A stretch of DNA of 54,042 nucleotides from positions 62,001-116,042 of IMG/VR virus record IMGVR_UViG_3300024308_000022; one strand, written 5' to 3'. The notes under the pieces are model-generated. The model was not told the DNA's origin. It did no database searches and saw only the letters and a list, made by a program, of their open reading frames with translations. The first letter of the stretch is position 1. Every line of letters starts with the position of its first letter. Source of the stretch: an uncultured virus (IMG/VR IMGVR_UViG_3300024308_000022). Taxonomy: Duplodnaviria; Heunggongvirae; Uroviricota; Caudoviricetes. The translations under genes were made by a program, and so were the position numbers. Shown piece by piece: positions 17,784 to 37,686 of the stretch.

Positions 17784-19952
17784 ATGATACTTTATGCCGA
17801 AGATTGGGACAAATACCCAACCGCTATTCGCGACTATAAAACGAATAACAAAAGCTTTTTAGAGTACGCTCGTTTACTCGTACTGATGGGTGTCAAAAAC
17901 AGTGACTTCTGTTTAGCGTTACACCAACCTCACCTGTCTGGGGTGAATGTTTATTCTGAACACCTGTCTCGTGAGATCAAACTTGACATCCAGATGGAGG
18001 TCAGATGGAACCCGTGGTACTACTTACGTGAAGTCGTAAGGATACCACCGAACGCGTCAGATGACCCGATTCCGTTTAAAGCGAACCGTGCGAACATTTC
18101 TTTATTCTGGACGTTCTTCAACAACATCGACTATTTCTTAGTGCAACCTCGTCAGACGGGTAAATCGGTCTCTACTGACTGCTTGTCCCAAGGGATGTAT
18201 TTATTCTGGTTACGTAACTCGAGATCCTTACTGATCACCAAAGACAACACGATCCGTGTAGAGAACGTGAACCGGTTACAGAAGATGCGCTCGTACTTAC
18301 CGGAGTGGTTGGTGGTGAAAGATCCGAATGACGCCAACAACCAGACGATGCTGACGTACAACACGAACAAGAACCGGTACTTAACTGCGGTAGGACAGAA
18401 CTCTGAAGACGACGCCAACAAAACAGGACGGGGTGCGTCAGTAGGCTACCTGCATGGAGACGAGGGTCCGTTTACGAAGTACATCCACAAGACACTACCT
18501 GCAGCGATGACTGCGATGAACGCCGTGCGCGACGAAGCGCGTTTACACGGCTACCCCAATGGTGCTATCTTTACAACCACCGCAGGGAAACTCGACACAC
18601 CTGAAGGGAAGTACATGTACGAGTTTATGAACAACTCTGCTGACTGGACAGAGCGTTTATTAGACTTAAAAGACCGTACGGAATTAGTGCAGGTGATTGA
18701 AGGGACGTCACGCGGTAAGAAGCTGATGATCCTTGGTGTATGGAATCACCGTCAGTTGGGATACACGGATGAATGGCTGTACGGGAAGATCATCGAGACG
18801 GCTTCTACTGGTGAGGACGCAGATCGTGACTACTTTAATAGATGGACAACCGGTGGTTTATCAAACCCACTGCCTACAGCCATCCTCGAGAAGATCTTAA
18901 AATCAGAAGTTGATCCAGAGTGGTACGACATCGACGAACGGACTCGCTTTGTACTCAAGTGGTATATCCCTGAGTCGGAGAAACAACGCAGGATGCAGGA
19001 AGGTCGGTTTATCTTGGGGCTTGATACGTCAGACGCCATCGGAAACGATGACTGTGCTCTGGTGCTTGTCGACGTAGAAACAGGCGCTCCAGTAGCCTCT
19101 GCGACCATCAACAAATCGAACCTGATTCCAGCAGCGACGTTTGTAGCAAACATTCTGGTGAAGTACCCCACCGTGACGTTTATCCCTGAGCGGAAGAGTT
19201 CAGCTCAGACGTTTATCGACTTAGCGATCCTCGAGTTACTGAGTGCAGGGATGTGCCCATTCCAGAGAATCTTTAACAAAGTCGTGGATGACCGGGATAA
19301 CCACAAAGACCTGTTTGCTTTGATTATGAAACGTCCCGCCAACGCAGAGCTTGTGAACGAACACCGGAAGATGTTTGGTTTCATCACCACAGGCGCAAGC
19401 CGTGAGATCCTCTATGGTCGTGTACTGAAAACCGCAGCCAAACGTACAGCCACACAAATCAAAGACCGGAAACTCTCGGGTCAGATTCGTAAGCTGGAAA
19501 TGCGTAATGGAAGGATTGACCACCAACTCGGCGGACATGATGACTTAGTTGTTGCGTGGTTACTAGGCCAGTGGTTACTGATGTTTGGACGTAATTTAGA
19601 ACAGTACGGAATCGATCCTAGGAGAGTGATGTCAAAAGTGTTTGACGAAGACGTGCGTTTTGAAGACGAACAACGTAAACGTCAAGCGTTGATTGAAACT
19701 TTGCAGGATGAATTCGATACACTCACAGAGACGTTGAAACAAGCTAAAGACCCACACCAGAAAATCCTCACAACACATCGTTTGAACCAAGTGCGGCAGC
19801 AATTGACCGCCAATGGAGGAGAGGTGAAAACCATGGCCGGGTTAGACCGTGAGCTGAAAGATCGCGAACGTCAACAGAAAGATTCGCTGTATCGGAATCC
19901 TTTCCAACGCACAACCGCTCCTGGGTATTACCAAGGGGTGTACGTCCACTAA
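17784..19952 (+). CDS. terL: Terminase large subunit (phiKZ gp025-like)
   Basis: Walker A PRQTGKS, Walker B LHGDE, coupling motif TTT, nuclease motifs LGLDTS and HDDLV. Confidence 0.93.
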   Translation: MILYAEDWDKYPTAIRDYKTNNKSFLEYARLLVLMGVKNSDFCLALHQPHLSGVNVYSEHLSREIKLDIQMEVRWNPWYYLREVVRIPPNASDDPIPFKANRANISLFWTFFNNIDYFLVQPRQTGKSVSTDCLSQGMYLFWLRNSRSLLITKDNTIRVENVNRLQKMRSYLPEWLVVKDPNDANNQTMLTYNTNKNRYLTAVGQNSEDDANKTGRGASVGYLHGDEGPFTKYIHKTLPAAMTAMNAVRDEARLHGYPNGAIFTTTAGKLDTPEGKYMYEFMNNSADWTERLLDLKDRTELVQVIEGTSRGKKLMILGVWNHRQLGYTDEWLYGKIIETASTGEDADRDYFNRWTTGGLSNPLPTAILEKILKSEVDPEWYDIDERTRFVLKWYIPESEKQRRMQEGRFILGLDTSDAIGNDDCALVLVDVETGAPVASATINKSNLIPAATFVANILVKYPTVTFIPERKSSAQTFIDLAILELLSAGMCPFQRIFNKVVDDRDNHKDLFALIMKRPANAELVNEHRKMFGFITTGASREILYGRVLKTAAKRTATQIKDRKLSGQIRKLEMRNGRIDHQLGGHDDLVVAWLLGQWLLMFGRNLEQYGIDPRRVMSKVFDEDVRFEDEQRKRQALIETLQDEFDTLTETLKQAKDPHQKILTTHRLNQVRQQLTANGGEVKTMAGLDRELKDRERQQKDSLYRNPFQRTTAPGYYQGVYVH

Positions 19953-20723: not shown

Positions 20724-22019
20724 TTACTTAAAGTAGTGTTTCGTGAGGGCTCTGAGTGCAATGTAGAGCATCACGCCACTCCGCTCTGGGGCGGTAGGGA
20801 CGGTCGACTTCCTGAGTTTCAAGTCTTGGACTAAACGATCCCCAAGCTTCCGTAAGTGCATGACATTCTTGTCGTTGATACGTGAACCCATGTACATGGC
20901 TTTGAGTCGTTCAATCAAAAACGCTAAGTCGGACGTTTTGATTCTCCGTGAAGCCATAAACTCGATGGTGTAGAGTAAGGTTTCTGTTAGGAGTTCTTGT
21001 AGGTACGCTTTCTTTGGATTCGTGAGGTTTTCACTTAGGTAGTAAAGCGCTGCTTCAAAGACTTTTTTGTCTATAGAAGGAATTGCTACTGCCACCACGT
21101 CGATCAGCTCTTGTCGTACAAAGTTCTTTGGCTCTAATGCTACCTGTTGTAAGTAACGCATCAAGTCATGGTACACACGTGAGACGTCACGGATAAACGT
21201 CCCTTCTGAAGACTCAATCACAGAGCTTGTCGTGACCACACGACTATTGGAGCTACGGACGTCGTAGAAGACTTTGGTGTAGTCTTTGATTACGTTGCGT
21301 ATCCGTGTCTGCATGTCTGATACCATATACAAACACGCTTCGTCTGGTCCGTACTTCAGTAAGGTTTGTACGTGTAAACCTTCACGAGAGACAAAGTGCT
21401 CTGCTCTGGAGTCAAAGAGCGCCGACCACGTCCCTAAGCGTTTGATGTCAAACCGTTGACTCAACGACTCTTCTGAAAGTTCCGTGGGATGGTCTTTCAG
21501 TAAACGCGCTACTACAGAGTCAAAGTTTTCAAAAGCGACTTTAGCAACCGCAGGGTCAGCTGGGTAGTGGAAGTACTCTGAGAGTAACGAAGAGCTAAAC
21601 TTGTAGTGCAATAAACGCACACAGTCTTGCTGGGCTTGTAAGGAGACGCTTTGACTTAAGTCGGAGTCTTTAAACCGATACACGGTATACAGCAGCAAGT
21701 GGTTCAGTGGATCAGACAGAACATTGTACTCTTCGGGAATCAACGGCTCTGAGGGATCTTTAGGGCTTTTGAGTTTCAATAAGTCTTGTCGCAGTGCGTA
21801 CTCGTCAATCCGAAAGACTTCATCAAACAACCAGTCTCGGTCTTCCCCAGTGAACTTGACTGGGTACACGCCTAAAAGACCTGTCCCAAAAAACATCAAG
21901 TGATCTTCGTTCTTTGTTTTAAACGCTTGTACGGTGTGCTGTAAAGACCCAGCCATCCGACGATCGTATTTCAAGTGACTGCATACACGATCGAATAGTT
22001 CTTTTAATTGAGCCGACAT
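20724..22019 (-). CDS. Virion structural protein (phiKZ gp032-like)
   Basis: KNEDH..FFG..LLGV, FDIK.LGTW, LYI.LRALT motifs; AGGAG RBS; TATG at 22050-22047. Confidence 0.75.
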   Translation of the reverse strand: MSAQLKELFDRVCSHLKYDRRMAGSLQHTVQAFKTKNEDHLMFFGTGLLGVYPVKFTGEDRDWLFDEVFRIDEYALRQDLLKLKSPKDPSEPLIPEEYNVLSDPLNHLLLYTVYRFKDSDLSQSVSLQAQQDCVRLLHYKFSSSLLSEYFHYPADPAVAKVAFENFDSVVARLLKDHPTELSEESLSQRFDIKRLGTWSALFDSRAEHFVSREGLHVQTLLKYGPDEACLYMVSDMQTRIRNVIKDYTKVFYDVRSSNSRVVTTSSVIESSEGTFIRDVSRVYHDLMRYLQQVALEPKNFVRQELIDVVAVAIPSIDKKVFEAALYYLSENLTNPKKAYLQELLTETLLYTIEFMASRRIKTSDLAFLIERLKAMYMGSRINDKNVMHLRKLGDRLVQDLKLRKSTVPTAPERSGVMLYIALRALTKHYFK

Positions 22020-22058
22020 GGGCTTACACTCCTGTTAGAACGTCTACATAAAATGCAG

Positions 22059-22088
22059 CATAGTGGAGGGGGCCTCAACCCCCTCCAC
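22059..22088 (-). terminator. Terminator-like hairpin closing ncRNA A and the helicase transcript
   Basis: Minus strand GTGGAGGGGG-TTGAGG-CCCCCTCCAC-TATG. Confidence 0.75.
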
Positions 22089-22251
22089 CAGCTAAACGGT
22101 GCGCTTTAGGTACAGTGGGCTTTGGTAACCACCAACCAACGCCCTCACCACCATCCTGCAACAGAGGGACTACGTAGCTAAAAAGGAGTAAAACTACGAG
22201 TAGGACGGGAACCATTCACGGGCGTTTTTGAGAAACGTACGTAATCGCACC
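22059..22251 (-). ncRNA. Candidate structured ncRNA A
   Basis: TATG at 22254-22251; nested helices GGUGCG/CGCACC, AACGCCC/GGGCGUU, CCGUCCU/AGGAUGG, CGUAGUU/AGCUACG; loop UUACUCCUUUUU; no ORF; followed by a terminator. Confidence 0.65.
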
Positions 22252-22262
22252 ATACCATTACC

Positions 22263-24257
22263 CTACCAGTAAAAACTAACTGGCATTCTCACCCCAGTGT
22301 CTAAACCGTAGTCTTCGGTAGAGACCGTTCCTGTGGTCCCCATCAACTGGTCGATCTGTCCTTGTGCCCACTCGAGGATCTCTTTAGAACGAGTAGAAAT
22401 GTTAGGGACGTTCCCAGTATCTAAGAACACATCAAACACGTAGACCTGCTGGTCTTGTCCGATCCGATCCGCTCGAGCAATCGCTTGCTCTCGTTCGTGG
22501 GGTCTAAACGGGGAGTTCAGAAACACAACGGTGTTCGCAGCAAGGATAGGGACTGCGGTGGATAAACTGTCTAAGGTCGCTACCAGAGGGTTCTCACTAC
22601 CTTTCTTGTAACGTTCTAAGATACCGTCTAAGTCTTTGTTGGTTTCTGCAAAGACCGTGAGAGGTTTGTACCCTAACCCTTTAAGTCGTGTGTCTGTTGC
22701 TTTGACAACATCTACGTAGGACGTAAAGAGTAAAGTTTTCTTAATGGACGAATCCACTAAGTCTTTTAAGTCTAGATTTTCCATCACCTCGATCGCGCAC
22801 TCCACGCGTTTACGATTGAGGAGGTTTCCTAAACACTCTCCACGTACTTTCAAAGGTAAGTACTTCACGATACTTTTCACTTCCTTAAACTGACGCGCTA
22901 GGGCATCTGGTAAAGAAGGAATCAATTCGTGTTTCTCGTAAAGGTTACAAAACTTGATCTCTGGTCCTAAGTGACGGTAGTCGGTACTCTTACGGATGAT
23001 TCTCAGTAAAGTTAAGTACTTGGAGAACTCGTGTTGTTGAGACTGTGACTTGAGCGCAATTCGGTCTTTGTGGTACCGGATACACTCCTCAAAGAGTTTT
23101 ACGTAGTGGTCAAAGTCTTTCTGGTAGTACTTTAACCGTTCTGTGATATACTCGGTCATTGCTACACGAATCACATCTAAGGTGTACCGTTCTGCTTTGG
23201 GAATCTTTACGCGAATCTCTTTAACGATCGGAGCACGTTCGATGATCTCGCTTTTGTCGATTCGGTAGGTGGTCTTACCGATACGATTGGCTAAGATATC
23301 CAAAGCTCGTGCAGAGTCTAGACCATAGATCGTTCGAAACGCAGTCTCTGTTTCTTGAGTAAAGAGTGGGTCGATCGTCCGTAAGAAAGGAATGACTTCT
23401 TTCCCTAACGCTTTGATCGGCGTTCCCGACATCCAGAGCGTAGAGACTGGGTTGAGTAGTTTTGCTAACGTCACAAAGGCATCTGTACGGATAGAGTCAG
23501 GGTCATTAAAGTTGTGGCACTCGTCTAGGACGAGGTTGACTCTTTTCCCTTTTAAGAACTTTGCTTCCTCTAAGAACTTGACTAAGTACTCGTAGTGGAG
23601 GATATAAAACCGTTTGTTAGGAGGTGGTGGTGTACCTACCGCAGAAGTCCAATACGTGGGAGGTGACACAAACTCTTTATCCAACGTACTCGCCCATGGA
23701 TCAGTTAACGCGTTCTTCGGACACACGACGATGGTGTGGTCGGTTTTTAACCCATACGACAACCACGCGGACATTAGGGTTTTCCCAGAACCCGGTGGGG
23801 AGGCTAACATATAACCACGTAGACCGTACTGCTGTGCGTTACGCTCGTACTCTTTAAAGAACGCTTCCTGATGCGGATACGGTTTCTTCTTCAGGAGTTT
23901 AAACTGACTACGGTCTAATAAAGGAGACTCTGGTTCTACGAGGGTGTTCTTAAGCCACGTGTGTTCCAATAAGCCCGCTTTGATACTGAGGAGGGTTTTA
24001 GCAAAGCCTTGTGTACCTTTGTACTGGAGAAAGAGTTTCTCTACGATATACAAAAGCTCTACCGCAAAGAACTTGTGGAGTTTAAAGCCAAACTTGTTGT
24101 GTTCGCGAAAGATCCCTGATTCAATTTTCGAGGTCTTCCACGTTTTGTAGATCAGCTGAGAAAGACGTTGGTTGTTGAGGCCCTCTACGTGAATTTGATC
24201 TCCGATTTCTTCTACAGTGACATACCCGACAAAACGTTTTAATACGGAGCTAAGCAC
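22263..24257 (-). CDS. SNF2/superfamily 2 helicase
   Basis: PPGSGKT, DECH, SGTP, QAIARADRIGQ; GTG 24257 after AAAAGGAAGGGG. Confidence 0.9.
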   Translation of the reverse strand: MLSSVLKRFVGYVTVEEIGDQIHVEGLNNQRLSQLIYKTWKTSKIESGIFREHNKFGFKLHKFFAVELLYIVEKLFLQYKGTQGFAKTLLSIKAGLLEHTWLKNTLVEPESPLLDRSQFKLLKKKPYPHQEAFFKEYERNAQQYGLRGYMLASPPGSGKTLMSAWLSYGLKTDHTIVVCPKNALTDPWASTLDKEFVSPPTYWTSAVGTPPPPNKRFYILHYEYLVKFLEEAKFLKGKRVNLVLDECHNFNDPDSIRTDAFVTLAKLLNPVSTLWMSGTPIKALGKEVIPFLRTIDPLFTQETETAFRTIYGLDSARALDILANRIGKTTYRIDKSEIIERAPIVKEIRVKIPKAERYTLDVIRVAMTEYITERLKYYQKDFDHYVKLFEECIRYHKDRIALKSQSQQHEFSKYLTLLRIIRKSTDYRHLGPEIKFCNLYEKHELIPSLPDALARQFKEVKSIVKYLPLKVRGECLGNLLNRKRVECAIEVMENLDLKDLVDSSIKKTLLFTSYVDVVKATDTRLKGLGYKPLTVFAETNKDLDGILERYKKGSENPLVATLDSLSTAVPILAANTVVFLNSPFRPHEREQAIARADRIGQDQQVYVFDVFLDTGNVPNISTRSKEILEWAQGQIDQLMGTTGTVSTEDYGLDTGVRMPVSFYW

Positions 24258-24386
24258 AATGAACCCCTTCCTTTTTATATAAATTAACCACATGAGATTA
24301 ACGTATAACCCCACGACACACAGGATCGTGCACCCGAATTAATGCTATGCGTCAGAGGAGATCTGACCGTTAGAAAAGGACAGAGT

Positions 24387-24950
24387 ATGAACACTCCCGA
24401 ATACGTTTTTATTCCTAAGAAGGACCCAACCCACACGACGGTAGTGGATGTTTTTGTCGGTGAGACGTTGGTTGCGCAAGTTGGTTTAGGGATACTCTTA
24501 GGGTATCCTTCTGTATACCTGTACGGCAAGAAACCTACGGTGTATGCGTTACTCACCGTAGACGATACCGCCCGTATCCACAGCGTGCTGTATAAGTTCT
24601 CTCAGTGGTTTCTACAAGTAAACCACCAACCGCTGGACCGGTACTACATCGGCACCATCCGAAACCTGTTCAAAGGGACTACGAGTCTCTTTTTGATTGA
24701 CCAACACGTACTGGGATGTATCAGTCCAATGTATAGTGCTGGAGGGACTGCGTACGACATGCAAGCTCATCCTGACGGTAAACCGACCGATCGGTATTAC
24801 GTCAGTGTACTTTTGGAGAACACCCCCCGTGAGCACGAAGGGTACTTGGAACAACTACTTTGTAAAGCGTACGCTAATGTCGCGTATTTAGAACACAAAA
24901 AACAGACAGAGGGTAGAACATGCAACGATCAACCAGCTCAGCGGGTTTAG
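24387..24950 (+). CDS. Hypothetical protein
   Basis: ORF 24342..24950; ATG 24387 after AAAAGGA. Confidence 0.65.
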   Translation: MNTPEYVFIPKKDPTHTTVVDVFVGETLVAQVGLGILLGYPSVYLYGKKPTVYALLTVDDTARIHSVLYKFSQWFLQVNHQPLDRYYIGTIRNLFKGTTSLFLIDQHVLGCISPMYSAGGTAYDMQAHPDGKPTDRYYVSVLLENTPREHEGYLEQLLCKAYANVAYLEHKKQTEGRTCNDQPAQRV

Positions 24951-26008
24951 TGACTGCTGCGATCAACCAAGCCAACGGCAAAGAGTTTGCTGTAGAGCAA
25001 CTGCGTTTTGGAATCCCTCAGGTTTTAGAAGGTACGCCTAACACGTCGGTGATCGCTGGGTTTATCCAAGGGAAACGAGAAGACGTGGTAGTATTCACGT
25101 ATGATCGTTTTTTATTCCCTGAACTCTTTCGTGTGGGTGTAGACACTCCTGTACTCCAGATTCCACGTCACGCACTGTCGCGTTTAGACACGGTAGGGAT
25201 ACTAGACTACATCAATGGTCGGTTTGACACCGTATTGGAGCTCAATGAGTTTTATAACCAGCGTTACACCGAAGGGACGTATCCACTGGAGCTGACGTTA
25301 ACGCCTGAGCAGTCTTTAGCTTACCGTACAGGTCTAGACATTCGTGTTTTGGATCACGGTGTGGAGCCTACAGGGACGGTTGCGTTTCCGGGATTTGAGT
25401 ACCCCATTCCAATCAACTACAGCAGTGAGGTCCAACCTTCACTGGGTGTTGTGCCTACAGACCCACCAGAGCTAGAACACGGAATTGGAATACTCGCAGG
25501 GGGACACGTCGCAGTCACGAATTTAGAATGTGAGCTCGCCATGTGTGCACGCAGCGATCGTTCGGGTGTTCTACCTTACTTCATTACTTCTACCTATTAC
25601 GTTAGTAGTGAAGACCCGTTGGGTTGGTTCGTACCAGTCACGATTTCTTTGTTAACCAAAGAACGTATTGTGAGTCTAAAAGACCAGTACCACACGACTC
25701 TCACCGTGTCGTACTTAGAGGACGAGGTTATCGTAGGAAGCCGCGCGTGGGTACTGAACGAAGAAGCCGGTGAATACGCGTGGGTGGGGGATGTCTCTAA
25801 CATTCCTGCGTTGTCTACAACTACCCCAGAGACTACCGTGGTGCAGACGGTACTGTACGGACGGTTAGTGGTGCCTTTCTTAGGGGTCACTCCTCCTTTG
25901 AATGGAGCCATCCCTACGGGGACCTATCAGTTTACACTAACAGCTGAAGCCCTTGATACCTTTGTTGTGAATGACCTTTTTTTACAGATCACTATAGTAG
26001 TGGTTTAA
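24920..26008 (+). CDS. Putative virion tail/baseplate-associated protein
   Basis: N-terminal module (INQANG...FG.P...NT....Y.R...IN..F...SLAY) resembles a repeated phiKZ-like tail protein domain; beta-rich C-terminus. Confidence 0.6.
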   Translation: MQRSTSSAGLVTAAINQANGKEFAVEQLRFGIPQVLEGTPNTSVIAGFIQGKREDVVVFTYDRFLFPELFRVGVDTPVLQIPRHALSRLDTVGILDYINGRFDTVLELNEFYNQRYTEGTYPLELTLTPEQSLAYRTGLDIRVLDHGVEPTGTVAFPGFEYPIPINYSSEVQPSLGVVPTDPPELEHGIGILAGGHVAVTNLECELAMCARSDRSGVLPYFITSTYYVSSEDPLGWFVPVTISLLTKERIVSLKDQYHTTLTVSYLEDEVIVGSRAWVLNEEAGEYAWVGDVSNIPALSTTTPETTVVQTVLYGRLVVPFLGVTPPLNGAIPTGTYQFTLTAEALDTFVVNDLFLQITIVVV

Positions 26009-26013
26009 ACCAG

Positions 26014-26045
26014 CATAGAGGGAGGCTCGAGCCTCCCTCTTTATG
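26014..26045. terminator. Bidirectional terminator-like hairpin
   Basis: CATAGAGGGAGGC-TCGA-GCCTCCCTCTTTATG between convergent genes. Confidence 0.8.
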
Positions 26046-26050
26046 TTGTC

Positions 26051-26920
26051 TTATTGTCCACCGGCGATTAACATCCGGTAGTGTTTCATTGCCGACTTTG
26101 GATCGGCTAAGAGCGCCATCGCTTTCCACTGTGTTGCTAAGTACTCTGCGTACAGGTCATTCGCGTCTTCGTACCGTTCGATGATACTGGTGAAACGATC
26201 TAACGTCATCCCGTAGAACAACTCTTGCTCGCCCATCTCTAATAAGTAGTTGTTGTAGATCCACGCTTTGGTGGCGAGGATCGCTAACTTAGAAAGCGCG
26301 TGGTAGTACTTCGAAGGAATAGTCGCAAATTGACTGTCGTACCCTAAAAGCACAGACATGTATCCATTTCTGACTAAAGGAGTCCAGTCGGTGATCAGAA
26401 TGGTGTTTGGACCAATGATCGTAGTGTTAGCAGACTGAGAGATAGGAATAGGCGACACTGCGTTCAGCATCCCTTGCATCCCTTGCTGGATGATCGTGGA
26501 GTTCGCTGTGGTGTAAGGCCATTGCCCACCCGAGTACGACGTGCTCCCTACCTGTGAGTTAATCCCGTAGATAAACGCATGCACAGCGGTGATCTCTAAA
26601 CCATTGGTTCTACTCTTTGGAATTTGATAGATGACGTTAAAGCGTCCTTCGTATGCAAATGGAGAATCCAGCTCTTGGTGAGCTAAACCGTCTAAGGAGA
26701 TATCCACAGACGTACCGCCTGCGTAGTCTAAGTCAGGACGCAAACGCCCTTCGATGACCTTGTCTATTAATTGCGCATCGATGCTATTTGCAAATTGGAA
26801 TCCATAAGCAGGCGCAGCTTGACGTACAGAACGGATCACTTGTGGAGCGAACACCCGTTCGATAATCTGAGGAGGAATCTCCTGTTTGATTCGGTTGAGT
26901 AAATACTGAATTGCGTTCAT
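26051..26920 (-). CDS. Conserved Chimalliviridae protein (possibly phiKZ gp042-like)
   Basis: MNAIQY.L..IK.EIP N-terminus, LATKAWIYN, Y.DA..LY.EYL...W; divergent from phuZ. Confidence 0.6.
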   Translation of the reverse strand: MNAIQYLLNRIKQEIPPQIIERVFAPQVIRSVRQAAPAYGFQFANSIDAQLIDKVIEGRLRPDLDYAGGTSVDISLDGLAHQELDSPFAYEGRFNVIYQIPKSRTNGLEITAVHAFIYGINSQVGSTSYSGGQWPYTTANSTIIQQGMQGMLNAVSPIPISQSANTTIIGPNTILITDWTPLVRNGYMSVLLGYDSQFATIPSKYYHALSKLAILATKAWIYNNYLLEMGEQELFYGMTLDRFTSIIERYEDANDLYAEYLATQWKAMALLADPKSAMKHYRMLIAGGQ

Positions 26921-27016
26921 CAGGAACTCCATCGGTTAAAAACTAACGACGGCTCTAGTCTTATGTAGACAGCTCGTCTTTTGGCTCATAGGTTTACACT
27001 GAAGAAGGAAACTAGA

Positions 27017-28000
27017 ATGAAGAAAACATTACGTATTTATGGCTGTGGTGGCGCGGGGATCAACAACGCAGCGTACTTTCAAAGTGCGGTAGAGCAGCAA
27101 GTCCCAGGACACGCGGAATTAGAAATCGCGTATATCGACACCTCCAAAGCGAACTTAACCGACGCTATTCCTACGGAGTCGGTGTATATCGTTCCACTGG
27201 GTGATAAGAAAGATGGTGCAGGTAAAGTCCGTGGTCAGTTGGCTTCTGATATTGAGAAGCACATCCCACAAATCCTTCAGAAACACGCACCGGGCGATTT
27301 TAATATCGTACTGGCCTCTACGACAGGCGGAAGTGGAAACGTCGCTGCATCGTTACTGCAGGCTCGTTTGTTAGAGTTAGGTATCCCTGTGGTGGCGATC
27401 TTTATCGGTTCAGCAGAATCTGCGCTGAGCGCACAGAACAACGTCAAGGTCATCGAGTCGTTAGACAAAATGGCACGGGGACGTAACGTACCGATGTCGA
27501 TGTTCTATGTGCTGACTGATCCACTGAATGATGGTTATACTGCAACAGAAGCCGACTCAGAAGCACGACGTTTAGTGTCGTATATTTCTCGTGCGGTCTC
27601 TGGTGAGAACTCTCGTGTAGATAGTTCGGACGTGATCAACTGGGTGTTCTACAACCGTGTGACTCAGGTCAAACCTCAACTGGCTTTAATTGACTACTGT
27701 CTAAACGACGACGAACTCAAAGACGTGGAGTTCCCAATCAGTTTATTCAGTTTGTCCAGTAACCCAGACTACTACCCACCGGTCGCTGCTGGGTACATCT
27801 GCGATGGGTTATTAGCTCCAGCAGGAAACGACGACGACCTGAAACAACTACAGTTAGTGATCACGACTGTAGGTGTGGAGAAACTGTACTCCATCGCTAA
27901 AGAGCGTTTAACTGCCATCCAACAACAACAAGCCAGTCTGCCAGAGACGTCCGCCTTAGGTGGTGAGAGCGATTCTACGGGCTCAGGTTTGATTTTGTAG
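27017..28000 (+). CDS. phuZ: PhuZ phage tubulin
   Basis: YGCGGAGIN, IDTS, GAGK.R, TTGGSG signature loop, T7-loop D..D, acidic tail ending GLIL; TATG at 26962. Confidence 0.93.
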   Translation: MKKTLRIYGCGGAGINNAAYFQSAVEQQVPGHAELEIAYIDTSKANLTDAIPTESVYIVPLGDKKDGAGKVRGQLASDIEKHIPQILQKHAPGDFNIVLASTTGGSGNVAASLLQARLLELGIPVVAIFIGSAESALSAQNNVKVIESLDKMARGRNVPMSMFYVLTDPLNDGYTATEADSEARRLVSYISRAVSGENSRVDSSDVINWVFYNRVTQVKPQLALIDYCLNDDELKDVEFPISLFSLSSNPDYYPPVAAGYICDGLLAPAGNDDDLKQLQLVITTVGVEKLYSIAKERLTAIQQQQASLPETSALGGESDSTGSGLIL

Positions 28001-28008
28001 TCGACCAG

Positions 28009-28040
28009 CTAGGGTAGGGTAGACCTACCCTAGTATGCCG
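28009..28040 (+). terminator. Terminator-like hairpin
   Basis: CTAGGGTAGG-GTAGA-CCTACCCTAG-TATGCCG. Confidence 0.75.
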
Positions 28041-28093
28041 CTCTAAAGCGTTTATATTTACGATAAACGCATATCACATGTGGAACGTCGTTG

Positions 28094-28106
28094 AGATATA
28101 TATTAT
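28094..28106 (+). promoter_or_regulatory. Putative early phage promoter
   Basis: AGATATATATTAT matches the AGATATANATTAT core; intergenic, ahead of the small-ORF array. Confidence 0.6.
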
Positions 28107-28151
28107 TTCAATGACATTAACCATCTTTCGTAATAAATAGAAGAGGTCTCA

Positions 28152-28562
28152 GTGGACGAACGTTTGCGTGCTACCTTTATAGTAGACTTACTTCCAGCGT
28201 ACACTCGGATGCACCACCGCATCCAACAGATTGTACACACACAGCAAGGACAACACCCCATCTGGTTAGAACATCCTTTCTTTCGAGGACTAGAGGCTAT
28301 CGTGCGTGGGATTTGGCTAGGCGCAATCGACCAGATTGCAGATGAGTACTTACACATCCGTTCTCTCGCAGGAGAACGTCACGTATACCACGAACTCGTA
28401 CAGTGCTCTACTTTACGGATGGAACTTTTGGAGCTGGTGTTCGTTGACGTGTACCGTGAGTTACACCCTGTCTCAACCATGGCGTATGAACACCACCACG
28501 TACCTGACGTGAGTTTCTACGATACCTTTGACGGGAACGTTGCTGTATGCTGGAGGAAATGA
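28152..28562 (+). CDS. Hypothetical protein, array member 1
   Basis: GTG after GAAGAGG. Confidence 0.7.
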   Translation: MDERLRATFIVDLLPAYTRMHHRIQQIVHTQQGQHPIWLEHPFFRGLEAIVRGIWLGAIDQIADEYLHIRSLAGERHVYHELVQCSTLRMELLELVFVDVYRELHPVSTMAYEHHHVPDVSFYDTFDGNVAVCWRK

Positions 28563-28563
28563 A

Positions 28564-28992
28564 ATGTTTAAAACAAAAGAAGAACTAGCCACCATTCTAA
28601 AGGATGGACATCCTGCTTATATAGAAGAGATTCCAGAGAATTTCTTAGGACCACGTACTGAGGAGTTGTTAGAACGCTTGGATGCAAGTCACTACATGGT
28701 GTATAGCGTGTTGGTGGAATCGTTCGTGGAACACAAGCGAGGAACGTGGTACAGTTTATTGCATAATTCCCTGTACAGGTCGTTGGAAGGACAAATAGAA
28801 GACGACGAAGCGTTTAATGCAGTGATCTCCGATATCCTTGATGCGATCTATCCAAGAGCGCAAGAGTATCAGGATTACTTCGAAAGCATCGCGTCGCTCA
28901 TCACTAGCCCCGATGGGATGTTAGTGGTTGAGATCTATGACGAGATGTCGTTTGAATCTCGTACCGTCGTATGGTATCGGTTAGAAGACTAA
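28564..28992 (+). CDS. Hypothetical protein, array member 2
   Basis: ATG 28564 after GGAGG. Confidence 0.7.
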   Translation: MFKTKEELATILKDGHPAYIEEIPENFLGPRTEELLERLDASHYMVYSVLVESFVEHKRGTWYSLLHNSLYRSLEGQIEDDEAFNAVISDILDAIYPRAQEYQDYFESIASLITSPDGMLVVEIYDEMSFESRTVVWYRLED

Positions 28993-29010
28993 AAAGGAAA
29001 CCCACTAGAC

Positions 29011-29859
29011 ATGAATCAGTTAAGCATACCCGATAAATCTGCACAGAAAAAAACGTATATGTTTGACGTGTGGTCACACATCCAAGTGATCCACCAGGCG
29101 CTCTTTCCAGAGTTTCGTTGGGACGCCACACCTACAGGGGACGTTGCAGATCGTATCGTAGAACACACCGTACGGTTTATACTGGACGATGCGAGTTGCG
29201 TGGGGGATTACGTACGGTTAGAAGAAGCGTGGTTGTTAGCAGTCCATGACTTACACCCTGCGTTTATCTTCGATGGGATCGATAACCACGAGTACTCGAC
29301 ACGTGTGTACGATCGTCTACTGGTTCCTTTGAAAGACCAGTTACTGGATGAACTCTCTCGTGCGCTTAAAGTCGCTCCTCACTCCGTGTGGTCGGTGCAC
29401 TGCGATGGTTCTAGTCTGTACATTCAGTACTTAGGAGACGCACGAATCATCGAGTGGGAATTACAGCAAGCCAAACGAACGAAAGAGCAGGTTACGACCG
29501 ATTTACAACTACGGCTTTTCAAACATGAGGTAGAGACAGTACTCAAACCAATTGCTCCGAAAGAACGTATTCTGTCCGTAAGACAAGTCATGGACTTACT
29601 GCAGAGCAATGAATCGTTTTACGTGGCACACAGTAGTTACAGTGGTTTCCTAGCAGAACCCACCGAAGGAAAAGAGTCATTTAAAGTTCAGTTGGCTCAA
29701 GGTGAGAACGAGGCTAAGTTTGACGTATTGGTCAACGACACCGTGCTCTTTACGTACGTAGGCGGAGCACAAGCAAAACTGATCTCTCAAGCAGTAGAAA
29801 CCACCTACGCGCTGGAAGAACTCTCCGCGGTCCTTAAACGTGTCCTTGGGGTGGCGTGA
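29011..29859 (+). CDS. Hypothetical protein, array member 3 (with extra C-terminal domain)
   Basis: AAAAAGGAA RBS; VWSV...LYIQYLGDARI.EWE motif. Confidence 0.75.
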   Translation: MNQLSIPDKSAQKKTYMFDVWSHIQVIHQALFPEFRWDATPTGDVADRIVEHTVRFILDDASCVGDYVRLEEAWLLAVHDLHPAFIFDGIDNHEYSTRVYDRLLVPLKDQLLDELSRALKVAPHSVWSVHCDGSSLYIQYLGDARIIEWELQQAKRTKEQVTTDLQLRLFKHEVETVLKPIAPKERILSVRQVMDLLQSNESFYVAHSSYSGFLAEPTEGKESFKVQLAQGENEAKFDVLVNDTVLFTYVGGAQAKLISQAVETTYALEELSAVLKRVLGVA

Positions 29860-30302
29860 TGCATCCCGTGTCCCCTGAGTACAGTGGTCACGTGCTTTAC
29901 GTTGCGGGAGTACACACCACACTAGCACAGAACGTTAAAACTCTTCTAGGCGGAGAACCGTTCTGGATCAAAGACAGAGAAGACGTCTTACGCAGTCTAC
30001 TGGAAGTGGTGTTTGCTCAACGCTCCAAACAAGACTACATTGACGTAGAGCTTGCACGAGTGTATCACCGTTGTGCTGCAAACTTTAAAGAGTGGCAGTT
30101 GCTGCAAGAGTATCACAACCAAGCGATCAACACGTTGATCTGTTTAATTGCCGATCACATCCAGTACACACCCAACTATCTACTGCACGACTACCGTTTA
30201 CTCAACGACGAGTGGTTAGCGGTAGGGTTTCGTGAACTGGAGTACTCCTGTACAACCGTTACTGTGGATACTGAAACCCCAGTCTTACCGGAGGACTTAT
30301 GA
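29856..30302 (+). CDS. Hypothetical protein, array member 4
   Basis: Translationally coupled overlap with the upstream stop. Confidence 0.7.
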   Translation: MMHPVSPEYSGHVLYVAGVHTTLAQNVKTLLGGEPFWIKDREDVLRSLLEVVFAQRSKQDYIDVELARVYHRCAANFKEWQLLQEYHNQAINTLICLIADHIQYTPNYLLHDYRLLNDEWLAVGFRELEYSCTTVTVDTETPVLPEDL

Positions 30303-30700
30303 CCCCCACGGAGAAATACGTAGTGGTGGTTCCTTTTGAAGACTTACGCGCACCGTTTGGACGGTACTTAGGAACAGGGCTGTATTGGGACATGGTGGTT
30401 CGTGGATGGGAGCTTTTTGTCGAAGCTCCCTACGAAGTACCAGGAGAGTTATACAGCAGTGTGTTGGATCATTACTTGAGTCAACAGCACACCCTCGACC
30501 AAGAAAGTCTTTATCGGTTAAGTGAAGAAACAGCAATCGCTATAGAGATCGAGATCCTCCGTAAAGATCCGATCTTCTCTCTTTACTTAAAACCCTACTT
30601 ACAAAAACCTTGGGGCGTAGAACACGTAGGAAGCTCATATGGAAAACCCACCAGTGAGCTTTACGTGACGTTTGGTACACACCAACCCGTCGGAGTCTAA
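30299..30700 (+). CDS. Hypothetical protein, array member 5
   Basis: GGAGG RBS, ATGA overlap. Confidence 0.7.
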   Translation: MTPTEKYVVVVPFEDLRAPFGRYLGTGLYWDMVVRGWELFVEAPYEVPGELYSSVLDHYLSQQHTLDQESLYRLSEETAIAIEIEILRKDPIFSLYLKPYLQKPWGVEHVGSSYGKPTSELYVTFGTHQPVGV

Positions 30701-30717
30701 GTACTCCGACGCTATGC
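30688..30717 (+). terminator. Hairpin (terminator or processing site)
   Basis: CGTCGGAGT-CTAAGT-ACTCCGACG-CTATGC spanning the stop codon. Confidence 0.55.
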
Positions 30718-30757
30718 TCCTCTTGCTTTGGTTTAGAAAAAAGGAATCCCACCCGCT

Positions 30758-31159
30758 ATGAAAAAGATGTTTATATTCGGTACGTCTCATCTTTTAGAGC
30801 ACGTACTGCAACTAGGAAGAAACCCTGTGTTTAACGACAGTGATATGTTGTTCTTGGTGATCCAGTACTACATGCACCCGGATAACCATCACGCGGTGCA
30901 CATGGGGACTCGCGATCAGCTGTGGGAGCACATCTACCAACAGACGGAACTCTACTGTCGGGACCATCCAGGTGTAGAAATGGAGAAAGTACAAAGTGAA
31001 ATTTGGAACAAGATCATGCAAATGGCTCAGATACTAGAGCCGGAACTGAGGCACTTCTTTAGTATGAACGTCGTAGATATGTACGACTACACTCCAGCAG
31101 AGGTTCATGAAGTCGCAGGTGATCTTTATGTGGTGTTTTATCCAGTGAATGAGGCATAG
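30758..31159 (+). CDS. Hypothetical protein, array member 6
   Basis: AAAAAAGGAA RBS. Confidence 0.7.
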   Translation: MKKMFIFGTSHLLEHVLQLGRNPVFNDSDMLFLVIQYYMHPDNHHAVHMGTRDQLWEHIYQQTELYCRDHPGVEMEKVQSEIWNKIMQMAQILEPELRHFFSMNVVDMYDYTPAEVHEVAGDLYVVFYPVNEA

Positions 31160-31165
31160 TCAACC

Positions 31166-31573
31166 ATGAGTCTGTACAAAACCAATGAAGTCGGGGAAAC
31201 GGTCAAAGCGTACACCAACGCGACTGTGACGTATATCCCCGTGGAGGGCGAGTACGAACGACTTTACGACGACCTCCTCTCGTTGGGGTGGTTTGACGTA
31301 AGAGTCGAAGACGTACTGGTGGAAGCAGCGTTGTGTGCGGTCAATGCACATCGAGGCTATTGGATCAAAGAACACGTGGGGATGGACCCGTTAAAAGCAG
31401 AGGTCATGCGAGACTGTGTCCGTCGCGTAGGAGATCTCTTTGCTCGGTATGGAATCTTCGATGCGGGAGTGCAGTGGCGGGACATCCGTTTAGACGGCGT
31501 GTCTGATTTTGTGTTGTTTGGCGAAATGATCAAAAGGGAATACCATGGGTGTGCTTATAGTCGATCTACGTGA
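31166..31573 (+). CDS. Hypothetical protein, array member 7
   Basis: GAGG RBS; packed operon. Confidence 0.7.
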   Translation: MSLYKTNEVGETVKAYTNATVTYIPVEGEYERLYDDLLSLGWFDVRVEDVLVEAALCAVNAHRGYWIKEHVGMDPLKAEVMRDCVRRVGDLFARYGIFDAGVQWRDIRLDGVSDFVLFGEMIKREYHGCAYSRST

Positions 31574-31850
31574 GGTGGAGTCTGAGTACAATGACTTTCT
31601 TTGTGCGGCCATGCTCACGTACTCGGAGTACGTCGATGACCCACGCTCACACGTTGCATTAAACCTGTCGTTTTCACAACTCTTAACGGAGATTGCTTTA
31701 GGGGTGTTCACTGATCCCTACGGTATACTCAGAGACGTGTACTTGACTGGGAAGTGTTTATTAGAGAAAGTACTGCGGGTGTATCGGTTAGGCAATCCGC
31801 CGTATCGGGTGATGTTATGGGAAGACGACACCGTCGCTATTGAATTTTGA
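31545..31850 (+). CDS. Hypothetical protein, array member 8
   Basis: AAAAGGGA RBS. Confidence 0.7.
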   Translation: MGVLIVDLREVESEYNDFLCAAMLTYSEYVDDPRSHVALNLSFSQLLTEIALGVFTDPYGILRDVYLTGKCLLEKVLRVYRLGNPPYRVMLWEDDTVAIEF

Positions 31851-31864
31851 AAGAGGAGCCCTGT

Positions 31865-32272
31865 ATGGCTTGGCAAGACTATTTCCAACTGCGTAATACC
31901 ATCTCAGCGACGACGTGCGCGCCGAGTGTAATCCCACCGATTATTCGAGCAAAAGCATTGTCGATTGCCGATACCGAAACAGCCGCACAGGCAGGAACGG
32001 ACGTTGCTGCACTGCATGCGAACATCCTACCTTTCTTACCAGATCCAAAACCAAACAGTCCGTATGACTACGAGTGGTTGAAGATCAAAACGATGGATGG
32101 CAGTACACGATTCATTGGCTTACCGTGGCTGGTGGAATCGAGTATCGAAGTCCACACGACAACAAAGTTTGTGATTGAACTCGATGGCGTCGATCCACTG
32201 AAACGTCCATTGGTAGAAGAAGCGTTACAGAGTAATGGGTTTACCATTACGTCTTTTAAAATACAGTCGTAA
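31865..32272 (+). CDS. Conserved Chimalliviridae protein (phiKZ gp049-like)
   Basis: HANI.P.LP...Y.WL......G....IGLPW....SI; directly upstream of the DNA polymerase. Confidence 0.75.
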   Translation: MAWQDYFQLRNTISATTCAPSVIPPIIRAKALSIADTETAAQAGTDVAALHANILPFLPDPKPNSPYDYEWLKIKTMDGSTRFIGLPWLVESSIEVHTTTKFVIELDGVDPLKRPLVEEALQSNGFTITSFKIQS

Positions 32273-32278
32273 TACTAT

Positions 32279-32470
32279 GTAGTTACCTCTGAGGTGAGAA
32301 GTTTTAGAGTCCGTACTTTTCGTGTAGTCTCTAAACCGGTTCCACTTCGGAGGTCATCCTCGCCTCCTGGGGAGTCTACAGCTCGTTGTTTAGTTTTACG
32401 CAATTCTTCCTTCATGAAAATTGGGTTTGATAAACCACCACGAGAGGAGCTATACGCTCCTCTCTTTTTT
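32279..32470 (+). ncRNA. Candidate structured ncRNA B
   Basis: TATG at 32276; 12-bp helix 32285-32296/32343-32354 with two G-U pairs; inner UUUAGAG/CUCUAAA; ends in an intrinsic terminator. Confidence 0.6.
32442..32470 (+). terminator. Intrinsic terminator
   Basis: GAGAGGAGC-TATAC-GCTCCTCTC-T6. Confidence 0.8.
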
Positions 32471-32504
32471 CACGTTTTTTTTTTGACATTGACGACTATG
32501 GTAT

Positions 32505-32620
32505 GTAGACCACGCTGGGTGTCCTTTCGGCGGTGGAATACGACATGTACCTGAACCTCGTCTTTGGCTTTCCCCAATGCCTTAGAGACAAAGGGGGTTT
32601 GCTGACCCCCTCTTTTTTTT
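32505..32620 (+). ncRNA. Candidate structured ncRNA C
   Basis: TATG at 32502; hairpins CCACGCUG/CGGCGGUGG and GUCUUUGGC/GCCUUAGAGAC; own intrinsic terminator. Confidence 0.6.
32592..32620 (+). terminator. Intrinsic terminator
   Basis: AGGGGGTT-TGCT-GACCCCCT-C-T8; a further hairpin ending in TATGCCG follows at 32626-32653. Confidence 0.8.
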
Positions 32621-32716
32621 AGACTAGGGAAGCGGATGCTTCCTTTTATGCCGTCTGTCTTTTTTGACCTTTACGGTCTATCGTTTAGTGCACTGAAATT
32701 ACAAGAGACGTTTACG

Positions 32717-34945
32717 ATGTCCAATCCATTTGTTCTAGCGCCTGAAGAGTATAAGCGCTCGTTAGATTTTTATAAAACGTACGCACGTGACGTTGCGAAG
32801 TACATCAGCTTGCGTACAGGGAAACCCTTCGAAGAAGTTTTAAAATGGGTAGTAGCGAACACCAAACCTGGGAATACAGGAAAGTTTCCTTTTGTAGACC
32901 CGAAGGTAAAGATACTGGAACGTGAGGTTGACGGGGATCGTGAACAGAAATTAGTCCCTTTAACAGAGATTCTCAAAAAAGCAGTACGTTTAGGGTCTGC
33001 GATTGCTCCTAACTTAACGGTGTACGCGAACCCAAAAGTCAAAGAGTCTCTAACCGGACGTTACTTAGTAGGCGAGCTTGCTAACCGAAACAAAAACAAA
33101 GGGTTGATGTTTGACGCGAAACGTGCGGGGAACACACTGATGCAGAACATCTACAACAACCGACAGAACCGAAACAAGATCAAGTGTAACTCAGTCTCAG
33201 GTGCGCATGGTACGAAGTCGTCTGTATTGTGTTTGGTCTCAGCTCACAGTACACTCACCAGTACGTGTCGTAGCGCGTCTTCCAATACAAACGCGAACGT
33301 AGAGCGTTTTCTGTTAGGAAACCGTCACTACTGGAGCTATGAAATCGCACAGCAGAATATCGTCAGTATTGTCAACCACTCCGACTACGACGCTATACGC
33401 GCTGCGATGCAAAAATATAAACTTGGGTATCCAAGTGTAGAGTACACGTTTGAACACGTGTTACGTTCCACGCGGTTGTACTGGAGAAGTCCAGAACTCG
33501 AAGAGAAGCTGCGGTTGTTGGTAGAAGCGTTATCGGACATCGAAAGAGCCGCGTATGTCTATACGGGGTGTATGTACAGCTTAGCGGAGTTACATCCTGA
33601 GTTTGTACGACGTCTACTTGGTGGTTTATCTGAGAAACCTACACAACACATCCCAGCGGAAGAAACGGCTGGGTGGATTAAAAAGTTAGACGAAGACGCT
33701 CAGATCCTGCTAGTGATCATCGCACACCGCGAGCTCGACGGGAAAAAACTCAAGGACGATGACGTTGTGAACGGACCACATTACGGTTGGATTGGTGCGT
33801 TAGCGAAGCAGTTGTACGAAACCGTACAGGACTACGCAGACTTCATCCGTGCGTTTTGGCGTACACCCAACATGCCAGCGAGTATGGCTCACTTTCCTGA
33901 ATCGATACGTAGGTGTGTGGTGGCGTCAGATACTGACTCCAGTATCTTCTCTACCCAGTACTGGACAGAGTGGTATGTCGGGGAGTTGGAGTTTGGTGAA
34001 CGTAGCGCAAACGTGAGTGCTGCGGTCACTTATTTGTGTTCTCAGTTGACCGTACACCTACTGGCGTTGATGTCAGCGAACATGGGTGTGGTGACAGAGA
34101 AAATCCACATGCTGGCAATGAAAAATGAATACAGTTTCCCTGTGTTCTTTTTAACCAGTATGGCAAAACACTACTTTGCAAGCCAAGCCGTAAAAGAAGG
34201 GATTGTCTTTAAGAAACACGAACTGGAGATCAAAGGAGCGACGTTACGGAACTCCAAAGCCCCTACGTACTTAATGGACAAGTCGGATGAACTCATTGAA
34301 ACGATACTGACGACGATTTCCAGTGGGAAGAAAATAGAGCTGCGCGCAATACTGCAGCAAGTCGCAGACGAAGAACACCGTATTAAACACGGGATTGGAA
34401 ACGGCGATTCGTTGTTTTTCTCCACAGCAACCATCAAACCTGCGAAGGGGTACAAAAACGAAAACTCTCCGTATTTGAACTACACGTTATGGCAGGAGGT
34501 CTTTGCACCGAAATACGGAGTCATCACCGAACCTCCGTACCGTGCGATTAAGATGTCGATGTTGACTAATACACCGAACAAAGTCAACACGTGGTTGGAT
34601 TCCCTGCCCGACCAAGACTTAGCCGAACGATTCCGTCAGTGGATGCGTAAATACAACAAAAAGTATTTAACGACTATCTACCTACCCATCAGTTATGCTG
34701 AAGTCCACGGAATCCCAGAAGAGTTACTGGAGATGATGAACTACCGGAAATTGATCTATGGGTTAATGACCAGTTACTATTTGATCTTAGAGTCCTTGGG
34801 GTATTACACCCACGAGAAACATCTAACGAAAATGGTATCAGACTACTTCCCTCCTTCGTGGGGGGTAGACGGCACACCTCCTGTAATAGAAGGTTGGGAG
34901 TCACGTGACATGACTCCGATGGTGGTTTGGAACAGCGAAGAGTAG
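32717..34945 (+). CDS. Family B DNA polymerase, polymerase-domain subunit (phiKZ gp050-like)
   Basis: Motif B K..CNS.SG, motif C SDTDS, AKHY, EIKG; start MSNPF typical of the family. Confidence 0.88.
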   Translation: MSNPFVLAPEEYKRSLDFYKTYARDVAKYISLRTGKPFEEVLKWVVANTKPGNTGKFPFVDPKVKILEREVDGDREQKLVPLTEILKKAVRLGSAIAPNLTVYANPKVKESLTGRYLVGELANRNKNKGLMFDAKRAGNTLMQNIYNNRQNRNKIKCNSVSGAHGTKSSVLCLVSAHSTLTSTCRSASSNTNANVERFLLGNRHYWSYEIAQQNIVSIVNHSDYDAIRAAMQKYKLGYPSVEYTFEHVLRSTRLYWRSPELEEKLRLLVEALSDIERAAYVYTGCMYSLAELHPEFVRRLLGGLSEKPTQHIPAEETAGWIKKLDEDAQILLVIIAHRELDGKKLKDDDVVNGPHYGWIGALAKQLYETVQDYADFIRAFWRTPNMPASMAHFPESIRRCVVASDTDSSIFSTQYWTEWYVGELEFGERSANVSAAVTYLCSQLTVHLLALMSANMGVVTEKIHMLAMKNEYSFPVFFLTSMAKHYFASQAVKEGIVFKKHELEIKGATLRNSKAPTYLMDKSDELIETILTTISSGKKIELRAILQQVADEEHRIKHGIGNGDSLFFSTATIKPAKGYKNENSPYLNYTLWQEVFAPKYGVITEPPYRAIKMSMLTNTPNKVNTWLDSLPDQDLAERFRQWMRKYNKKYLTTIYLPISYAEVHGIPEELLEMMNYRKLIYGLMTSYYLILESLGYYTHEKHLTKMVSDYFPPSWGVDGTPPVIEGWESRDMTPMVVWNSEE

Positions 34946-37438: not shown

Positions 37439-37588
37439 GAGTCTTGAAGACGTTTTCGCACATACCATCAGTGTTTATTTTTACTGCTGTAGTTATACTA
37501 TGTAGAAAACACAGCAGGCTTTGTAAAAAGTGCCTGCACAGCCACTCTCTATGCGGCTAAACCCCCAAATTCCTATATCCGTAGACGA

Positions 37589-37624: not shown

Positions 37625-37686
37625 CACTAGGATAAAACCTAGCTCGATTGCAATCGAAATGTACGTAAAACAAAAGGAAGAAATAC

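Follow-up and report, generated by a model that had tools for sequence, protein, structure and literature searches.

Does the interval next to the DNA polymerase gene of a nucleus-forming jumbo phage hold small regulatory RNA genes, and what might such RNAs do? The question is raised by a 54,042-nucleotide (nt) stretch of DNA from an uncultured virus (IMG/VR record IMGVR_UViG_3300024308_000022, positions 62,001 to 116,042; hereafter the window). An initial annotation of this stretch proposed three intergenic units, here termed A, B and C, as small RNA genes with loops resembling the anti-Shine-Dalgarno (anti-SD) tail of 16S rRNA. Units B and C are located between the SH3DP gene and the DNA polymerase gene, while unit A is located between an SF2 helicase gene and a homologue of phiKZ gp32 (Table 1). 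The proposal of small RNA genes displaying such loops is supported, mainly by comparison of the B/C site among related phages and by a transcript mapped in phiKZ. In our judgement, a functional RNA of some kind is very probable for B, probable for A and somewhat probable for C. We give an even chance to the more specific reading that the three are late-made riboregulators pairing with ribosome-binding sites (RBSs).

The polymerase-adjacent site in related phages

We compared 92 distinct SH3DP-polymerase gaps from other phages, defining an extra segment as at least 45 nt ahead of the first called terminator. Such a segment is present in 49 of the 92 gaps, whereas 22 have a terminator at once and 21 have no called terminator. 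The extra segments split into many unrelated families. Words in hairpin loops were ranked with A, B and C left out, using 38 non-redundant segments that were cut automatically and that retain a few coding insertions. CUCC occurs in hairpin loops of 11 of these segments, compared with 1.1 in shuffled sequences, and ranks first of 256 words; among 1024 5-mers, CCUCC ranks first and UCCUU second. CCUCC is the anti-SD core of 16S rRNA (PMC6288834). Either CUCC or UCCU is found in a hairpin loop of 14 of the 38 segments (shuffle mean 2.9, maximum 6), whereas none of 51 other intergenic segments from the same loci carries such a loop (shuffle mean 3.7). In a hand-cut set of 35 bodies, unpaired CUCCU is counted 9 times versus 0.8. 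The complementary words are not enriched inside these RNAs (GGAGG, 0 versus 3.1), and thus the loops are without obvious internal partners.

The antisense strand shows the mirror enrichment, in the form of GGAG loops. The C/U-rich strand is nevertheless favored by the promoter motif, by the U-tailed terminators, by a fold asymmetry toward the sense strand (47 of 52 segments), and by the phiKZ transcript, which is a gene-less RNA of 61 nt (40441-40502) mapped by ONT-cappable-seq at the gp49-gp50 site (PMC10914365). The same four lines of evidence led us to reject a CsrA/RsmA sponge encoded on the opposite strand. We also discarded the idea that the CUCC words are RBSs of antisense genes; CAT is located upstream of 11 of 64 sites, versus about 7 expected by our own estimate.

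In one family of about 290 nt (loci L068, L070 and L073), 12 of 46 base pairs are changed on both sides while the loops are kept, a pattern that is suggestive only, given three sequences and a structure derived from the same three. A second, short family keeps CUCC while its stems change. Of the conserved or covarying structure that the initial annotation would look for in relatives, the comparison shows recurrence of the site and suggestive covariation in one family, but no homologues of A, B or C themselves. Further cultured phages gave a unit at the site in three of five cases (Goslar, pVa-21 and LucasX, the last without CUCC); the PCH45 gap holds a terminator only, and the DT01 gap holds a gene. 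The Goslar unit has loops with UUCCUUCUU and ACCUCCCUC and a folding z score of -6.1 with its terminator. Separately, a second RNA family was noted at this site in L012, L098, L018, L026 and L315 (LucasX). Its members form a 5' hairpin around GGCGGG, and several also have a GGUUCUCGAUU loop.

Overall, the comparison supports the B/C site as a putative small-RNA hotspot bounded by promoter and terminator, in which scaffolds appear to change while a C/U-rich loop recurs.

Folds and loops of the three units

Sequence and folding confirm the TATG motifs with G at 22251 (minus strand), 32279 and 32505, along with the first helices proposed for each unit. Each unit has a terminator-like hairpin and gives a better fold on the stated strand than on the opposite one, and the UCCU loops are indeed predicted to be exposed, with unpaired probabilities (P) of 0.99, 0.94 and 0.98 for A, B and C. 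The loop motif arises by chance in 0.105 (A), 0.205 (B) and 0.10 (C) of shuffles. A common layout had also been claimed. This stands with respect to the TATG motif, the exposed UCCU loop and the terminator, but the units show no sequence similarity to one another (nhmmer, blastn) and their architectures differ.

In the predicted fold of unit B, the 5' end closes off a long hairpin and a short hairpin with UCCU; a second hairpin and a terminator (32442-32464) with a U-run follow. Its second motif, CUUCCUUC, had been described as an exposed loop, but is partly paired, with its UCCU open at P 0.06. Unit C consists of a hairpin with a UCCUUU loop (32522-32527), a single-stranded linker, a hairpin with a UUUCCCC loop, and a terminator (32592-32611) with a U-run. 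Overall, the loops of the three units are UUACUCCUUUUU, UCCU, CCUUCA, UCCUUU and UUUCCCCAAU. As a separate observation, the 7-mer UGUACCU is present in both A and C, and a few RBSs, the one of the gp68 homologue among them, contain its complement AGGUACA; its rank is not significant.

A terminator scan lists the hairpins of B and C, while that of A is unlisted because its U-run begins 7 nt past the stem. The additional hairpin with TTTTATGCC that parts the RNAs from the polymerase gene has the form that ends the SH3DP-polymerase gap in most relatives. With terminators included, the folding z scores are -4.08 (A), -4.59 (B) and -1.78 (C), and the strong values of A and B are owed largely to these terminators.

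No credible gene was found in the units, in agreement with the initial annotation; an open reading frame (ORF) of 86 amino acids across B and C lacks an SD sequence and has a non-coding codon score. ARAGORN finds no tRNA or tmRNA gene in the window, and Rfam gives no match there at gathering score. At E<=5, Rfam gives one chance match within 21900-32800 (E 2.8), away from the units, and it gives none at the polymerase-gap site of seven relatives. Likewise, blastn with the B/C region as query matched none of 50,697 phage records. A covariance model of A, whose reach is limited because it was built on one sequence, gives weak 31-81-nt matches in 3 of 49 other genomes, which we read as terminator hairpins, and nothing convincing in 41 loci. 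The rest of the 233-kilobase (kb) genome, where only sites with the strict promoter motif were folded, contains no further clear unit of this type.

Candidate promoters

In phiKZ, TATG is required, but does not suffice, for a promoter of that phage's non-virion RNA polymerase (nvRNAP) (PMC4666361). Judged from sequence alone, the three units carry a candidate phiKZ-type late promoter, a TATG with the predicted start at its G. Plain TATG occurs 422 times in 116 kb. By comparison, the extended motif WATNNTATG common to A, B and C has 13 sites in 116 kb, 7 of which are intergenic versus 1.0 expected. This motif was derived from the three units and from relatives; when A, B and C are excluded, 4 of the 10 sites are intergenic. 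It precedes genes for the tail sheath, two internal head proteins and one virion/tail protein, and also chimallin and an HNH gene. Six of 19 motif sites examined have no ORF start within 260 nt, and unit B is one of these six. Among relatives with an extra segment, 13 of 38 loci have a relaxed motif no more than 60 nt from the SH3DP stop codon; none of the 22 terminator-only loci do, and random windows do in 1% of cases.

Intergenic enrichment, placement before virion genes and recurrence in relatives make an nvRNAP promoter likely, and a late or middle promoter of this polymerase likely drives the units. The designation "late" is supported indirectly by the virion genes that share the motif, but the phiKZ promoter at the same site is classed as middle.

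Two further observations concern promoter-like sequences elsewhere in the window. In the chimallin leader (37494-37686), a WATNNTATG site is located 185 nt before the gene, and a second, early-type motif is found inside the leader. The sequence AGAT(A/C)TANAT(T/C)AT, at window positions 6572, 28094, 37603 and 47617, precedes chimallin, gp68 and other genes; it has nine sites in the genome and is probably an early promoter of this phage.

Predicted pairing with ribosome-binding sites

Loop segments were paired with 258 predicted start regions and with coding windows at a cut-off of <= -10 kcal/mol. The unit A loop UUACUCCUUUUU pairs with 54% of start regions versus 26% of coding windows, and the CUUCCUUC segment of B with 38% versus 19%; the loop segments of A and B also include one that pairs with 80% versus 67%. 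The initial annotation overstated the match in describing RBSs of the window as mostly AAAAGGA(G/A), which precedes 10 of 56 predicted starts, although AGGA is found at 35 of 56.

More extended complementarity is seen in relatives. The loops of L068, L070 and L073 include 12- and 14-nt perfect complements of nvRNAP subunit RBSs, and in these loci together with L251, L257 and L260, loops near-perfectly complement the RBSs of gp68, gp71-73, gp74 and gp123 homologues. The nvRNAP match is post hoc, with a Fisher p of 2e-4 on 13 non-independent values, and suggests an nvRNAP feedback loop in this family. Across 35 phages, the RNA also pairs better with the start region of its own polymerase gene than with those of the other phages (p 0.003; SH3DP control, 0.27), and L101, L109 and L140 contain segments with 11-13-base-pair complementarity to this RBS.

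One match in the window itself is unexplained. A segment of unit B is perfectly complementary to terminase coding sequence over 18 nt (Table 1). A Markov null puts the chance of such a match at 0.3%, but of 286 real segments, 19 also have an 18-mer in common with another place.

A possible role for the RNAs

In the reading to which we give an even chance, the nvRNAP would transcribe A, B and C as stand-alone genes from their extended TATG promoters, and intrinsic terminators would end each RNA. The RNAs would then leave the phage nucleus, and their C/U loops would pair with the RBSs of several mRNAs, either early phage or host. Pairing would block initiation as with RsaE, damping translation on the shift to the late phase. 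The scaffolds would turn over fast, while a loop like the 16S anti-SD tail would reappear. A bolder version, which we hold only tentatively, is that nucleus-forming jumbo phages keep a dedicated RNA site by the polymerase gene and refill it with unrelated scaffolds that mimic the 16S tail, either to silence exported early mRNAs or to shield ribosomes from a defense that cuts the anti-SD. In this version, the RNAs, as nvRNAP products, would represent a missing post-transcriptional switch in a system where mRNAs are translated away from their site of synthesis. The silenced mRNAs in one family would include those of the nvRNAP's own subunits, creating a feedback loop, and the phage of the window would carry three such RNAs.

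Several observations weigh against riboregulators that pair with RBSs. The phiKZ transcript has been filed as derived from a 5' untranslated region (5'UTR), and its middle promoter also reads into gp50 (PMC10914365). The loop motif is carried by only 14 of the 38 segments, and 22 of the 92 loci are without an RNA. When searched against the relatives' loci and each other (nhmmer, blastn), A, B and C match only themselves, and no covariation can be obtained for them because no sequence homologue was found. The site of unit A is not syntenic, as the gp32 homologue has other neighbors in 59 other loci. Without comparative support of its own, A is therefore judged by a promoter, loop and terminator that match the class. 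Bodies stripped of terminators have z scores of -2.3 (A), -2.6 (B) and -0.9 (C), values that are moderate and, for C, not significant. A second shuffle method gives -1.9, -2.2 and -0.6, the background from 60 genome windows being -0.9 +/- 1.5; the bodies are thus unexceptional relative to random genome windows, and folding energy alone proves little.

The pairing data also have negative aspects. The loops of unit C show no preference for start regions over coding windows, and the best RBS duplex of B (gene 5900) is reached by 6.7% of shuffled seeds and is not significant. The test for nvRNAP targets gives p 0.73 on 14 values from five other relatives and p 0.66 on 15 values from A, B and C; of the five genomes it uses, three are partial, and its automatic start calling mis-called the polymerase start of the window phage. 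When the locus's other genes serve as the comparison, the own-polymerase effect weakens to p 0.18, in a stricter test on 33 of the 35 loci that dropped two with fewer than two other genes, including the strongest case, L140. Occlusion of RBSs, as initially proposed, would fit the preference of A and B loops for start regions, which C loops do not show, and no specific target passed the controls.

Alternative explanations

It is conceivable, albeit unlikely, that the RNAs are decoys that mimic the 3' end of 16S rRNA and soak up a protein that binds there, for example a host defense endoribonuclease with a cut site in or close to the anti-SD, a ribosomal protein or a cold-shock protein. The enriched words (CUCC, CCUCC and UCCUU) are generic rather than extended target-specific seeds, no specific target emerged, and the RNA of one relative, L127, exposes a stretch almost identical to the 16S tail. 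Toxins that remove the anti-SD do exist (PMC12274833), but no link between them and these phages was found. Moreover, the loops of the L068 family match particular phage RBSs over 12-14 nt, and loop sequences vary more than a single protein site would permit.

We consider it distinctly unlikely that B and C are cis-acting leaders of the polymerase gene, in which transcripts terminate prematurely or, upon read-through, fold their loops onto the polymerase RBS, with A acting likewise for the gp32 homologue. Promoter P023 of phiKZ yields both the 61-nt RNA, classed by the authors as 5'UTR-derived, and gp50 transcripts (PMC10914365). The complementarity to polymerase starts described above also speaks for a leader, and the segments of L101, L109 and L140 may be cis leaders in those phages. 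However, the effect vanishes relative to genes of the same locus, two or three terminators separate B from the polymerase gene, and no antiterminator fold was seen for the stretch from C to this gene. Some relatives place whole genes between the RNA and the polymerase gene, and 22 of 92 express the polymerase without such a segment. Ribosome-coupled attenuation is also unlikely, given that these phages separate transcription from translation (PMC13282480).

There is little likelihood that the units have no function as RNAs and are a stack of terminators plus promoter-proximal junk whose pyrimidine loops arose by chance. The ordinary folding of the bodies, the insufficiency of TATG for promoter function in phiKZ (PMC4666361) and the lack of homologues would all agree with this explanation, but it leaves unexplained the enrichment of promoter and loop motifs relative to negative controls, the covariation in one family and the mapped phiKZ transcript.

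It is highly improbable, in our view, that instead of repressing translation the units serve the phage nucleus as structural or adaptor RNAs, with ChmC as their binding partner and a grip on purine-rich RBSs that aids mRNA export or positioning. These phages do uncouple transcription from translation, and ChmC peaks from enhanced crosslinking and immunoprecipitation (eCLIP) are found on short unannotated PhiPA3 regions (PMC11077065), but the peaks named in that source lie elsewhere, and absence in 22 of 92 relatives and frequent changes of scaffold would not be expected of an essential export component. Least probable of all is that only A and B are non-coding and C is the mRNA of a small protein (25 codons from 32545). 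The weak fold of C and an SD of -9.5 kcal/mol, which exceeds in strength the genome median of -6.9, would suit this reading, but the first hairpin hides that SD, the ORF passes through the terminator, and the codon score is the non-coding value of -0.075, compared with 0.10-0.15 for neighboring genes.

Genomic context

Chimallin and PhuZ identify the phage as a nucleus-forming jumbo phage in the context of Chimalliviridae, with split RNA polymerase subunits, a terminase and a phiKZ-type DNA polymerase as further markers. Its polymerase is 42% identical to that of the nearest named phage and 66-69% identical to those of two closer relatives seen as proteins (P0002 and P0003). Clade-specific scans for the DNA of such relatives turned up no more than a relative at 44% among viral contigs, and genome contigs yielded none.

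Table 1. Positions of the units, their motifs and surrounding genes (window coordinates unless an accession is given)
Feature	Position	Strand	Remarks
Unit A, candidate RNA of ~200 nt	22050..22251	-	closed three-arm multiloop and terminator-like hairpin (stem 22090-22061)
Unit A loop UUACUCCUUUUU, anti-SD-like	22180..22191	-	predicted unpaired, P 0.99
Candidate late promoter of A, AATGGTATG	22251..22259	-	predicted +1 at G 22251; just past SF2 helicase stop; position inferred from phiKZ nvRNAP
Unit B, candidate RNA of ~190 nt	32279..32470	+	fold, terminator scan, syntenic RNAs in relatives
Unit B CCUCCU	32363..32368	+	UCCU forms loop of weak hairpin; unpaired P 0.94 (UCCU), 0.08 (CUCC)
Unit B CUUCCUUC	32406..32413	+	partly exposed; UCCU open P 0.06
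Unit B 18 nt complementary to terminase coding sequence	32422..32439 (versus 18852-18869)	+	perfect; post hoc, unexplained
Candidate late promoter of B, AATACTATG	32271..32279	+	overlaps SH3DP stop codon
Unit C, candidate RNA of ~115 nt	32505..32620	+	fold; contains 25-codon ORF from 32545
Candidate late promoter of C, TATGGTATG	32497..32505	+	sequence, motif statistics
Further terminator-like hairpin, then TTTTATGCC	32627..32653	+	parts RNAs from polymerase gene
SF2 helicase gene	22263..24314	-	upstream of unit A
phiKZ gp32 homologue	20724..22019	-	downstream of unit A; phrog_2921, tblastn to phiKZ
SH3DP gene, phiKZ gp49 homologue	31865..32272	+	upstream anchor of B/C site; PF20287 E 3e-22, phrog_3235
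DNA polymerase gene, phiKZ gp50 homologue	32717..34945	+	downstream anchor of B/C site; phrog_2927, homologue search
Chimallin gene	37687-39483		part of nucleus-forming context
Goslar unannotated structured unit	L314:1240-1445 (MK327938; gap 176468-176765, minus strand)		C/U loops, annotated terminator; between Goslar_00192 and Goslar_00191

Other elements were noted in passing. Two blocks resembling group I introns (window 40799-43149) flank an HNH/NUMOD1 gene after an nvRNAP subunit gene. Their similar cores, near 40930-40995 and 42640-42705, were spotted by eye. Rfam does not call the blocks in this interval at gathering score; it did call two group I introns in relative L026. An AT-rich gap of 646 nt (L227:15052-15697) has strong inverted repeats and a WATNNTATG site, and is possibly origin-like.

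Comparison with known systems

Non-coding RNAs (ncRNAs) of nucleus-forming phages have been listed without an assigned function (PMC13282480, PMC10914365, PMC11077065). No description of anti-SD loops or of a polymerase-gap class was found in the literature text available, although the alignments of PMC10690425 (29-151-nt candidate viral RNAs from IMG/VR 3) and subscription papers may hold relatives. The closest in location is the phiKZ ncRNA candidate 40441-40502 upstream of PHIKZ050, which has the same position and strand and its own start site and terminator, but has little structure and no similarity to B or C. In the portions of PMC10914365 that describe it, the anti-SD loop is not discussed, no Northern is listed and no function is given. 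Another positionally conserved small RNA (sRNA) of nucleus-forming phages, 201phi2-1 sRNA005 with its phiKZ counterpart before gp182, is found at a different locus by a tail gene, and none of the 11 sRNAs listed for 201phi2-1 is assigned to the polymerase gene (PMC11512511).

The closest in design are bacterial. The cuckoo/alpha-r14/RSs0680 sRNAs of Alphaproteobacteria are RNAs of 100-200 nt, present in several copies that are either scattered or in tandem, in which hairpins with variable stems show an anti-SD-like loop (PMC4615179). In these, a fixed 9-mer, CCUCCUCCC, is displayed by each of two to four similar hairpins, whereas the phage units have one or two loops of UCCU/CUCC type per RNA, dissimilar scaffolds and a phage polymerase promoter. 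The 9-mer does not occur in the loops of A, B and C; nor do adjacent similar stem-loops, as A and B form multiloops and only C has two hairpins. RsaE and its relatives in Staphylococcus aureus are unrelated RNAs in which one unpaired pyrimidine motif attaches to mRNAs and blocks the initiation complex (PMC2790875). The phage units share with them an unpaired pyrimidine motif complementary to the SD (P 0.94-0.99, with class-wide enrichment). However, RsaE uses UCCC, resides in a bacterial chromosome and has proven targets, while the units use UCCU/CUCC, belong to a lytic phage and have predicted pairing. The phage RNAs might thus work like cuckoo and RsaE without being members of either group, as CCUCCUCCC is absent and Rfam finds no match. 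Since these phages keep transcription apart from translation, exported mRNAs might come under RNA control. To this question the units bring a shared motif and a fixed genomic address, used by roughly half of the relatives that were compared. Goslar, a phage of E. coli, has a unit there that provides the best laboratory model, making the question testable with existing knock-down tools.

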